Origin: a virus
Direction: 5' to 3' (one strand)
DNA length: 64,000 nucleotides
Virus record (IMG/VR): IMGVR_UViG_3300025914_000010
Location: 14,661 to 78,660 of that record
The position numbers and the translations under genes are program-made. The notes under the pieces were generated by a model, which saw only the letters and a program-made list of their open reading frames with translations, searched no databases and was not told the DNA's origin. Each line of letters starts with the position of its first letter. The first letter of the stretch is position 1. Shown here piece after piece: positions 11,332 to 56,215 of this stretch.

Positions 11332-11405
11332 TAATGGCGGCGCGATTCGAACGCGCACTGTGCAGGGTTTAAGCCTGCTGTCTCCTGCCGTTGGACTACG
11401 CCATC
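11332..11405 (-). tRNA. tRNA-Leu (anticodon UAA), short variable loop, CCA not encoded
   Basis: Cloverleaf: acceptor GATGGCG/CGCCATT, anticodon arm GCAGG-CTTAAAC-CCTGC, T arm GCGCG-TTCGAAT-CGCGC, discriminator A. Confidence 0.9.
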
Positions 11406-48426: not shown

Positions 48427-48562
48427 GTTTGCGCCCCTCCCAGGCGCTTTATCCTCCAAACGACAAAAAGCGCATAGCAAGCGTTTGGAGGAACGCTTTT
48501 CGCCCCGTCGGGCTAGCTATGCGCAGGCTGGTGAACAGCCATTTTCAGTTTTTAGCGAACGC

Positions 48563-54067: not shown

Positions 54068-54535
54068 TCACAATATATCGAACGCGTCCTCGATCGCAGG
54101 TTGGTCGGCAGCCGCGAATGCCTCTTGCTGGCTCTGTAGCAGGCGCAGGAGCGTTTCCGCGTCGATCTTGCGTACATCGAGGGTGTCGCCGTAGTCTGCG
54201 CGTCTGCGGCGCTTGAGCCACTCTATCGCGGGTTTCCAGTCACCCTTCGCCTCTGCTTGAGTAGCAGAGGCGAACACGCTCTCGGTAAGAGCAACCTCAG
54301 CTTCACCTTCCGCGCGCGCAACCCTATCGGAAAAGTCTTCTCTCTTCTCCAGCCAGTCGTAGAAGGTATCGGGGTTAATGCCTGCTTCGAGGGCTGCGCC
54401 TAAGCGTGTAGCACCACGTGCGAGCGTGTTACAGATTCGGGTTGCGATCCATTCATCGTACTTCGTTGGCCGCCCCATCTTGGGGCGTGGGGCTGGTTGC
54501 TGGCTATGATCGTAGACTACTAACGCTGTTCCCAT
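54068..54535 (-). CDS. terS: Terminase small subunit
   Basis: GRPTKY..IC..L..G...AA..AGI...TFY.W HTH; DWK.A..WL.RR. Confidence 0.8.
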   Translation of the reverse strand: MGTALVVYDHSQQPAPRPKMGRPTKYDEWIATRICNTLARGATRLGAALEAGINPDTFYDWLEKREDFSDRVARAEGEAEVALTESVFASATQAEAKGDWKPAIEWLKRRRRADYGDTLDVRKIDAETLLRLLQSQQEAFAAADQPAIEDAFDIL

Positions 54536-54565
54536 TTGACAAACCTAACGCTAACATGTTATAGT
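54536..54565 (+). promoter_or_regulatory. Sigma70-type promoter
   Basis: TTGACA-18 bp-TATAGT with TG extension. Confidence 0.8.
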
Positions 54566-54805: not shown

Positions 54806-54861
54806 TTTGAGATCATAAATGGACTTCTTGAAAAAAAGTCCATTTATTTTTGCCTTACCTC

Positions 54862-54890
54862 TTGACAAACCTAGCGATAGGTTGTATAAT
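54862..54890 (+). promoter_or_regulatory. Consensus sigma70 promoter with palindromic spacer
   Basis: TTGACA-17 bp-TATAAT; the spacer holds AACCTA-GCGA-TAGGTT. Confidence 0.92.
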
Positions 54891-54926
54891 GGTAACTGTA
54901 AGAACGAAACGAGAGAGGACGAACCA

Positions 54927-55052
54927 ATGACATTCAGGCTAATCGGTTTCACCGGCAAGGTGCTAGAAATCCGAACGATGACAGAACTGGAAGTAAGAAT
55001 TGCGAACCGCCGTTTAGAGATCGATGGATCGTCATTGCGGTGGACGCTGTAA
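54927..55052 (+). CDS. 41-aa hypothetical protein
   Basis: GAGGA RBS; first ORF of the early transcript. Confidence 0.55.
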   Translation: MTFRLIGFTGKVLEIRTMTELEVRIANRRLEIDGSSLRWTL

Positions 55053-55053
55053 G

Positions 55054-55102
55054 ACTTCCCTGACGAGCCGGTAGCGGCGAAACCTCTTCGGAGGTCGGAA
55101 GT
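55054..55102 (+). ncRNA. Hammerhead ribozyme, type I
   Basis: Stem I ACTTCC/GGAAGT, core CTGACGA, stem II GCCG-GTAG-CGGC, GAAA, stem III CCTC-TTCG-GAGG, GUC cleavage triplet (cut after 55096). Confidence 0.93.
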
Positions 55103-55192
55103 GACACAACCCAATAGCAGAAACGCGAACATACAGAGACATTCGGAACGGTTAGCGCCTCTACCTGTTACCAAGCAGGAAAAGCCGGATGT

Positions 55193-55254
55193 AGTTTCCT
55201 CTACCGATCGAATTCAATTCGGTACTGACGAGCCGGGAACGGCGAAAGGAAACT
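55193..55254 (+). ncRNA. Hammerhead ribozyme, type III
   Basis: Stem III AGTTTCC/GGAAACT, CUC triplet (cut after 55201), stem I TACCGA/TCGGTA, CTGACGA, stem II GCCG-GGAA-CGGC, GAAA. Confidence 0.93.
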
Positions 55255-55259
55255 GAGCA

Positions 55260-55475
55260 ATGACAATCTTTACCTACGACGGCCACGAACCGCACGCATC
55301 GCATGGCGGATGGGCTAACTACCTCGCGACGTGTTCAGTGCGCAAGGCGTCGAACCTGGCGATTTGGTACAGCGTTGCCAATTGCCACTACATCCTATTG
55401 CCGACCGGCCTGCTCGTGGAACTCTTCGGATACCACGCTCACGCAATGTGGGACCGCATACACGGAGAATGCTAG
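55260..55475 (+). CDS. Hypothetical early protein
   Basis: AAGGA RBS overlaps hammerhead stem III. Confidence 0.6.
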   Translation: MTIFTYDGHEPHASHGGWANYLATCSVRKASNLAIWYSVANCHYILLPTGLLVELFGYHAHAMWDRIHGEC

Positions 55476-55577
55476 ACGCTCCCCACTAGCAGACAGAGGA
55501 TGGTTGCAGGTTCGCTGCCGGGCAGACGCTGGCGCAGTACGTACGCGCAAAGTGCGGGCTAAATTAGTCAACAAAAC

Positions 55578-55689
55578 GGGGCGCGCCGCTGGAACCGGCC
55601 GCCCCGGGTACCCTCTGGGTGCCGCCAGGAGACAGCGGGCATCCACGACTGTACCCCGGCGAGAAGGCCGGGAGAAGGAGACGAAAATG
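55578..55689 (+). repeat. Leader repeat A, copy 1 (others at 60155-60252 and 63572-63673; partial at 62380-62399)
   Basis: About 100-bp three-hairpin element ending GAGAAGGAGAC..AAATG. Confidence 0.92.
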
Positions 55690-55908
55690 ATTGTAAAAGT
55701 GACGCATTCCTGCGGTCACACCGCAGAACTTTATCGCAACCTCTCGTCCATTGCCGCGCAAAACGGCGTGGACGAAAACCGGGCGGCGGCAATCGCCCAC
55801 GAGCAAATCGACCGAGCGGCGCAGGATGTTTGCTCGGCTTGTTTCGAGGCTGAGTATGGCCCCTATTGCCATTGCGACGAGTGCGGGACTGACAGCCAAC
55901 AGAGTTAA
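55687..55908 (+). CDS. Hypothetical Cys-rich protein
   Basis: Starts at the ATG of repeat A; HSCGH..CSAC. Confidence 0.65.
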   Translation: MIVKVTHSCGHTAELYRNLSSIAAQNGVDENRAAAIAHEQIDRAAQDVCSACFEAEYGPYCHCDECGTDSQQS

Positions 55909-56215
55909 CAACCTAGGCATGACTCGCATCCAAGAACCCTAATCACCTGTTCGCGTACAGTCGCAACCTAACGACGGTCGCGTATCGGCCACTGCATGAA
56001 TGCTGCGAGTTGTGGACGCCCTACGCGGCCGTTGGAACGGACGGCAAATGGTATTCCGTCCATATGATCCTGAACGTGAACGGCGAGCCGCTTTTCAAAC
56101 AGGAAGATTGGATTGCAGTTTGATCGTTTCTACCCGCCGTCAGAGAATGACCCTCCGCTCGCTGCGGAACGGCGGTGTATCACCTTGGGCGATTATCACG
56201 AAAGGATTTGAGACA

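Follow-up and report, generated by a model that had tools for sequence, protein, structure and literature searches.

A compact type I and a type III hammerhead motif enclose a non-coding spacer between two small phage genes and probably punctuate their mRNA

Introduction

Do two hammerhead ribozymes of different permutation, placed 89 nt apart between two small phage genes, serve the RNA that they would cut out, or the mRNAs that they would leave on either side? The question is raised by a locus in the window analysed here, a stretch of 64,000 nucleotides comprising bases 14661-78660 of the 78,660-bp IMG/VR virus record IMGVR_UViG_3300025914_000010, which is rated complete (positions below are those of the window). 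Hammerhead cleavage depends on Mg2+ and leaves a 5'-OH and a 2',3'-cyclic phosphate, and a sequence-only reading of the locus had proposed that the purpose of the pair is a defined, possibly circular, small RNA, for example a decoy. Clustered hammerheads are known to flank genes in prophages, and three such arrays were cleaved in vitro (Perreault et al. 2011, PMC3088659). The role proposed for them is the processing of polycistronic mRNA (PMC3088659; PMC6765202), and later reviews regard the function of hammerheads in phages as still open (PMC6155905; PMC6765202).

Locus and genomic context

The locus, with its upstream ribozyme HH1, its downstream ribozyme HH2, and the adjoining genes ORF41 and ORF71, is laid out in Table 1. 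DNA close to that of the phage was found in rhizosphere and soil metagenomes by a sequencing-run search, which listed no RNA run with the locus. Near the locus, the minus strand carries the gene of the small terminase subunit (54068-54535), the portal gene, and other virion genes, and the plus strand carries small accessory genes as well as topoisomerase IB, Csx16-like, Arc-like, and ParB-like genes. No BLAST match to the locus or to the 24 kb around it was obtained among GenBank phages. In IMG/VR, ORF71 alone led to no relatives, and those reached via the small terminase subunit and topoisomerase IB were 30-50% identical, with no hammerhead near by. The large terminase had its best match (57%) in a Chthonomonadales MAG and its remaining matches across many phyla, and thus the host is not indicated.

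Table 1. Coordinates of the features of the hammerhead locus in the window
Feature	Position	Strand	Remark
Terminator-like hairpin, AAATGGACTT / AAGTCCATTT and T tract	54817..54852	+	direct reading
Consensus sigma-70 promoter, TTGACA, 17 nt, TATAAT	54862..54890	+	12/12 matches
ORF41, 41-aa protein	54927..55052	+	Shine-Dalgarno GAGAGAGGA 7 nt upstream; stop UAA 55050-52
HH1, compact type I hammerhead	55054..55102	+	predicted cut after C55096 (C17)
Piece between the two predicted cuts, 105 nt	55097..55201	+	non-coding
Segment of 91 nt missing from a natural DNA allele	55110..55200		joint 55109->55201, equally 55110->55202
HH2, type III hammerhead	55192..55255	+	predicted cut after C55201 (C17)
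ORF71 Shine-Dalgarno AAGGAAA and AUG	55246..55262	+	Shine-Dalgarno is the 3' strand of HH2 stem III
ORF71	55260..55475	+	unnamed small-protein family, 69 representatives at E <= 1e-3

The terminator-like hairpin forms the left edge of a cassette common to relatives, and similarity to the JGI contigs L111 and L112 and to soil contigs starts at 54820; a simple terminator scan did not list this hairpin, which has an A+T-rich stem and a 9-nt loop. In the 95%-identical relatives, the promoter keeps the -35 TTGACA and has TACTAT as its -10, and more than 12 positions differ in its spacer and -10 region (54868-54900), while the transcribed region is nearly unchanged. A second strong promoter (54536-54565; TTGACA-18-TATAGT with a TG extension, 11/12) lies right next to where the divergent small terminase gene starts and would drive an ORF of 89 aa whose end precedes the terminator-like hairpin.

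For ORF41, searches of Pfam and PHROG gave no match and no known family was assigned; the identical protein has been recorded in a cluster of 3 members, beyond which no relatives were found. The ORF71 family was likewise without a Pfam or PHROG match. A full HMMER pass showed that its representatives, 71-306 aa in length, share the motifs PH..GGW..FL..CE.R and NCNYI.FP.G.L.ENYGYHG, and on the strength of so many representatives with a common motif ORF71 is judged to be a real gene.

Identity of the two hammerheads

The hammerhead core was defined by C3 U4 G5 A6 N7 G8 A9, by G12 A13 A14, by the A15.1-U16.1 pair, and by H17 at the cleavage site. In both HH1 and HH2 this core is complete, with CUGACGA, GAAA, and U-C in the correct places, and three helices surround it with Watson-Crick pairs at 10.1-11.1, 1.1-2.1, and 15.1-16.1. 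According to our own descriptor and direct reading, HH1 consists of stem I (ACUUCC/GGAAGU, 55054-59/55097-102), the core segment CUGACGA (55060-66), stem II GCCG-GUAG-CGGC followed by GAA, and stem III ACCUC-UUCG-GAGGU, after which the C at the predicted cut precedes the 3' strand of stem I. Its stems I, II, and III thus have 6, 4, and 5 bp, its loop III is UUCG, a 3x3 internal loop lies beyond the 6-bp stem I, and its 5' end is 1 nt past the ORF41 stop.

HH2 is opened and closed by stem III, (UA)GUUUCCU/AGGAAAC(UG) at 55192-55200/55247-55255, within which the C at the predicted cut is followed by stem I (UACCGA, an 11-nt loop, and UCGGUA, 55202-55224), the core segment CUGACGA (55225-31), stem II GCCG-GGAA-CGGC with its GNRA loop, and GAA. 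Stems I, II, and III have 6, 4, and up to 9 bp, and the 3' end of HH2 lies 4 nt 5' of the ORF71 start; stem III contains the ORF71 Shine-Dalgarno sequence, which is located 9 nt 5' of the AUG. For each ribozyme, the hammerhead fold is the minimum free energy (MFE) structure of its own segment. Fast cleavage of hammerheads at cellular Mg2+ is associated with a tertiary contact of stems I and II, loop-loop or pseudoknot, and the elements that bear on such a contact are the internal loop beyond stem I in HH1 and the 11-nt loop I and GNRA loop II in HH2.

When both strands of the 78,660-bp genome were scanned with a descriptor that demands a complete core and three helices, HH1 and HH2 were the sole hammerhead loci, against a random expectation of 0.03 matches on average (200 second-order Markov genomes). 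Core and stem II are identical between HH1 and HH2 at 21 of 23 nt, and the two differences both fall in loop II. The descriptor, the MFE folds, and the 12/12 promoter hence bear out what had been read from the sequence alone, namely two complete hammerheads of different permutations about 90 nt apart and 3' of a promoter, with a 21/23 match between their cores and stems II and with most of each ribozyme body outside the 105-nt piece.

A check against the Rfam hammerhead models, which the same reading had suggested, came out negative. Neither HH1 nor HH2 matched RF00163, RF00008, or clan CL00010 at gathering score, and the only match at a permissive threshold was a mis-registered Hammerhead_3 of 21.9 bits; across the window, Rfam at gathering score reported just two features, an int-alpA RNA (48453-48523, minus strand, 50.1 bits) and a tRNA (11332-11405, minus strand, 52.9 bits). 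In 10 other phage loci, the same models at gathering score recognised only type II hammerheads and none of the compact type I or type III copies, and about 70 similar compact phage hammerheads were likewise missed. Given these failures in the 10 other loci, the silence of Rfam is a limit of the seed alignments of its models and not of the motif.

Family-specific models were therefore built. A scan of IMG/VR with the core and stem II pattern from this window yielded 102 loci, most of them with complete hammerheads, chiefly of the compact type I. Covariance model R1 was built from 68 distinct other phage type I copies, in which stem I covaries strongly, and model R2 from six other phage type III copies. 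HH1 matched R1 over its full length (positions 1-51 of 51; 54.9 bits, E 3.3e-15) and HH2 matched R2, also at full length (43.1 bits, E 6.8e-12), although the training loci had been fished with a pattern from this window, so that the independent evidence in these scores is limited to stems I and III and the topology. Loop I of HH2, at 11 nt, compares with UG-containing loops of 5-7 nt in the R2 training set. Taken together, these results support the view that HH1 and HH2 are genuine-looking hammerheads of different permutation on one transcript, for both of which cleavage is predicted.

Related hammerheads in other phage contigs

The compact type I family in IMG/VR (loci L002-L103) has a stem II of GCCG-N4-CGGC and a length of about 47-60 nt, with a full range of 43-74 nt, and was represented by 97 copies; Rfam 15 at gathering score detects neither this family nor the type III copies. 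Members of the family sit on the stop codons of small phage ORFs: the distance from the stop of the upstream ORF to the ribozyme start had a median of -2 nt (IQR -4 to +1, 78 cases), compared with +1 for HH1. From the cut to the next start codon the family median was 37 nt, compared with 163 nt for HH1, whose next credible start is the ORF71 AUG, with the second ribozyme in between. Type III copies in L061/L091 (GAAAGGGAACGUGCGAUG) and in L019 lie directly 5' of a Shine-Dalgarno sequence and AUG, as HH2 does.

Small ORFs are punctuated by the hammerhead arrays of other phage contigs, and all 13 of the 13 inter-hammerhead gaps in other IMG/VR arrays (243-1270 nt) contain an ORF, whereas the 89 nt between HH1 and HH2 contain none. 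With an alignment of the ORF71 family as the query, homologues were obtained at three IMG/VR loci. At one of these (L141), an array of type I hammerheads punctuates small ORFs just 5' of the homologue, and the other two have no hammerhead. Linkage of HH2 to ORF71 is thus not a trait of the family, and the ribozyme appears to be a modular punctuation element and no fixed partner of ORF71.

In two different IMG/VR phages (L019:7610-7750 and L090:6550-6700, minus strand), a sigma-70-like promoter, a leader core, a type III hammerhead, and a gene follow one another in that order. The conserved leader core spans about 60 nt (GGGCGGCGAGGGGAGCG.GGCAGGAGCC.ACAAACCAGACCGGGAAGCCCA.GGUGA), and stem I of the hammerhead covaries, while Rfam at gathering score finds nothing there. 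This leader looks like a small RNA with a ribozyme-made 3' end.

The piece between the cuts

The 105-nt piece carries only 6 nucleotides of HH1 and 9 of HH2. Its 5' part (55103-55138) is A/C-rich and unstructured, and its 3' domain (55139-55192), of 54 nt, is Y-shaped. Its 5' half contains four consecutive A-R-N triplets, and its 5' 42 nt are unstructured. The earlier observation of pairable ends and an internal helix was confirmed insofar as the MFE includes both the end pairing and the helix ACAUUCGG/CCGGAUGU; the fold of the whole piece was no better than that of shuffles (z -0.33, against -1.87 for the 54-nt 3' domain) and the ends, with 6 contiguous pairs including 2 G-U and a 2-nt 3' overhang, are only mildly unusual (chance P about 0.02). 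Moreover, the end helix is weak, closes a large multiloop, and is marginal in the ensemble, in which the MFE has a frequency of 0.04.

Searches for a signal within the piece gave null results. No Rfam match was found, the permissive threshold included, and no promoter was found inside the spacer. The best antisense target in the phage scored 24.3 bits, which 48 of 100 shuffles equalled, and hence none was significant. A coding spacer was rejected, as the two candidate frames (a 51-aa plus-strand ORF from GUG 55101 and a 156-aa minus-strand ORF) are both broken in relatives by a +1-nt indel at 55143. Self-ligation, whether as splicing of the flanking exons or as circularisation by reverse hammerhead ligation, was also discarded, as by hand no single fold could be drawn that unites the relevant ends. 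RtcB is absent from the phage.

Natural variation and a deletion allele

L111 and L112 are 95.3% identical to the window over 54820-55519 and divergent outside it. Because identity is confined to this interval, the cassette, from the terminator to 44 nt past ORF71, is a mosaic unit. Directly after it, L111/L112 and the soil contigs have about 79 nt in place of a 403-nt segment (55520-55922) that contains a 73-aa Cys-rich ORF (55687-55908), which makes a second mosaic indel.

Within the cassette, L111 and L112 differ from the window at no position of HH1 or HH2, at 2 positions of ORF41, at 6 of ORF71, and at 5 of the 89-nt spacer core, which gives the spacer the highest change density of the cassette among the 95%-identical relatives. 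The spacer changes include a tetraloop change from UAGC to GCGA and a U to CC change in the long helix, with no compensatory change; the Y-shaped 3' domain is kept in the relative despite the altered loop. Contigs of four other runs vary in the same pattern, and in run X3 a G>C change at 55237 turns loop II of HH2 from GGAA to GCAA, which is still GNRA. Of the conservation that had been proposed as a check on the small RNA, that of the pair holds in L111/L112, where both ribozymes are unchanged, and the insert is less conserved.

The insert can also be lost. The deletion allele listed in Table 1 lacks 91 of the 105 nt of the spacer and also the 5' strand of stem III in HH2, and leaves HH1 and the rest of HH2 intact. 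Runs X2 and X5, which belong to two independent soil studies, have contigs with its joint, and the full form is present in L111/L112, X2, and X3, so that retention of the insert is not general among relatives. As an exact pattern, the deletion junction had no match in IMG/VR. The allele must be derived, and it shows that some lineages can do without the spacer and without cleavage at HH2. On its right, the deletion can end exactly at the HH2 cleavage site, and its left edge is 13-14 nt beyond the HH1 site; the match of the right edge is possibly a coincidence.

Discussion

The explanation favoured here, and held to be probable with modest confidence, is double ribozyme punctuation of an accessory-gene mRNA, in which both ribozymes are active and the spacer is mainly a by-product. 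HH1 and HH2 would act constitutively and cut the promoter-proximal transcript twice in the gap between ORF41 and ORF71. The HH1 body would stay on the upstream fragment, so that the ORF41 mRNA would finish with a pair of tight hairpins and a terminal 2',3'-cyclic phosphate, and the HH2 body would stay on the downstream fragment, so that the mRNA of ORF71 and downstream sequence would begin with a 5'-OH, two hairpins, and a freed Shine-Dalgarno sequence. The 105-nt spacer would for the most part be degraded, and the layout would resemble an engineered ribozyme insulator. What is observed of this arrangement are the motifs, their family membership, their placement relative to the ORFs, the non-coding spacer, and the natural deletion; actual cleavage, its rate in cells, and its effects on mRNA stability and translation are what we infer.

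The order of type I followed by type III leaves both ribozyme bodies on the flanking RNAs, which fits the release of an insert and the formation of folded mRNA ends equally well. Folded ends are favoured because of the placement relative to the ORFs, the behaviour of the family, the signal-free spacer, and the deletion allele. Several points nevertheless weigh against punctuation. One cut suffices for it, and thus the second ribozyme and the kept spacer are not explained by need; the gap without an ORF is atypical, as all the other inter-hammerhead gaps examined hold one; the ends of the spacer can pair over 6 bp (P about 0.02); and in the MFE of a longer transcript the HH1 5' strand pairs alternatively with GGAGGUC.

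The purpose given to the device by the sequence-only reading has fared less well than its geometry. It is doubtful that the 105-nt RNA, with its 5'-OH, 2',3'-cyclic phosphate, and self-pairing termini, is a protein-independent functional phage small RNA that a host RtcB possibly circularises: the ribozymes sit where solitary gene-punctuating phage hammerheads sit, and the piece shows no significant fold, no phage complementarity, and no Rfam match, 91 of its 105 nt are deletable, and the phage has no RtcB. If such a small RNA were nevertheless functional, the deletion allele would represent a host-dependent loss.

In its linear form, as a natural ribozyme-insert-ribozyme cassette that releases a trans-acting RNA of 105 nt, such as a protein sponge or decoy, the idea is unlikely. 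The type I-type III order, by which the piece retains no more than 6 and 9 nucleotides of the ribozymes, would suit it, as would the lack of an ORF between the ribozymes, unlike in all the other arrays examined. The A/C-rich 5' half with its four A-R-N triplets and the Y-shaped 3' domain (z -1.87), which is kept in a relative, are also consistent with it, and the conserved leader of L019/L090 ends at a type III hammerhead, implying that ribozymes of this kind may serve phages in setting the bounds of small RNAs. However, the whole piece folds no better than chance (z -0.33), has neither an Rfam match nor complementarity to a target in the phage, has the highest change density in the cassette with no compensatory pair, and is largely missing from the deletion allele in two studies.

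An unlikely alternative is that HH2 is chiefly a translation switch, in which stem III would hide the ORF71 Shine-Dalgarno sequence until the cut and the release of the 5' strand, and HH1 and the spacer would tune that release; such a switch would be compatible with punctuation. The AAGGAAA is the 3' strand of stem III, the same layout is seen in L061/L091, and the deletion allele removes exactly the masking strand. Unmasking of the Shine-Dalgarno sequence by the HH2 cut is thus plausible. In thermodynamic modelling, which is the only basis of the estimate, the cost of opening the Shine-Dalgarno region drops from 3.1-4.6 kcal/mol before the HH2 cut to 2.4 after it, a small effect of about 0.7-2.2 kcal/mol, and the 105-mer is predicted to be still bound after the cut (about -10.7 kcal/mol); both points count against the switch.

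It is very improbable that one or both motifs are inactive remnants, now functionless, at the point where recombination joined a promoter-ORF41-HH1 unit to a leader-HH2-ORF71 unit. The cassette does lie between the mosaic break points 54820 and 55519, and HH2 is disabled in the deletion allele, where the rest of its sequence is undecayed; both cores, however, are perfect, the motifs are unchanged in relatives whose neighbouring sequence has changed, and the only HH2 variant seen keeps a GNRA loop.

The products of hammerhead cleavage are substrates of RtcB, engineered flanking-ribozyme designs make use of this, and the ends of the piece form 6 pairs with a 2-nt 3' overhang. Sealing of the excised piece into a circle by a host RtcB-type ligase is nonetheless very unlikely, given a weak end helix that closes a large multiloop (MFE ensemble frequency 0.04), a phage without RtcB, the existence of the deletion allele, and the finding of Perreault et al., who sought circular or spliced products of clustered prophage hammerheads and found none (PMC3088659).

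The locus gains its interest from the role of phage hammerheads, which has been open since 2011 (PMC3088659, PMC6765202), as it condenses this question to about 700 bp, where a single consensus promoter and two small genes are combined with a pair of ribozymes opposite in handedness. With its natural allele that lacks the spacer and has one ribozyme disabled, it is a convenient system in which to ask whether ribozyme punctuation alters mRNA stability and translation, whether the retained ribozyme body is a protective end, and whether the excised piece is used. Furthermore, the compact type I and type III hammerheads of phages, which form a large family, escape the present Rfam models, and such sites consequently go unannotated in phage genomes.

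Comparison with known systems

HH1 resembles the compact type I family in its full-length match, its stem sizes, and its position at the stop of the upstream ORF, and differs from it in what follows, as the next gene of the family lies a median of 37 nt past the cut and here 163 nt and a second ribozyme intervene. Engineered devices include the RiboJ-type 5' UTR insulator, ribozyme-guide-ribozyme cassettes, and Tornado circular RNA expression. As in such devices, an upstream ribozyme that cuts at its 3' side and a downstream one that cuts at its 5' side would free an insert with a 5'-OH and a 2',3'-cyclic phosphate, and the mRNA left behind would have a hairpin cap, a 5'-OH, and a defined 5' UTR; unlike the present locus, those devices are designed, carry chosen inserts, and for circles need strong end stems and a known ligase.

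In viroid-like RNAs and retrozymes of eukaryotes (PMC7761336), two hammerhead cuts similarly define a unit-length RNA with ligatable ends. There, the ribozymes lie inside an excised replicating RNA of hundreds of nucleotides, whereas here they lie outside a piece of 105 nt that is DNA-encoded in a phage operon and bears no sign of replication.

The closest likeness is to the clusters of Perreault et al., in which a number of consensus hammerheads that differ in topology likewise share a strand of a phage operon whose genes are small and not conserved; the present operon has its two hammerheads on one strand as well. Those clusters, like the IMG/VR arrays, have their ribozymes on either side of one ORF or of a few consecutive ones, 243-1270 nt apart, whereas here a type I and a type III ribozyme lie 89 nt apart, each adjoining an ORF on its outer side. 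Compared with the Perreault clusters, moreover, the spacer is non-coding and both ribozyme bodies would be left on the mRNAs. In summary, the layout, with a type I and a type III ribozyme around a non-coding spacer and the ribozymes outside it, is an unusual form of the known clustered phage hammerheads and introduces no new principle.
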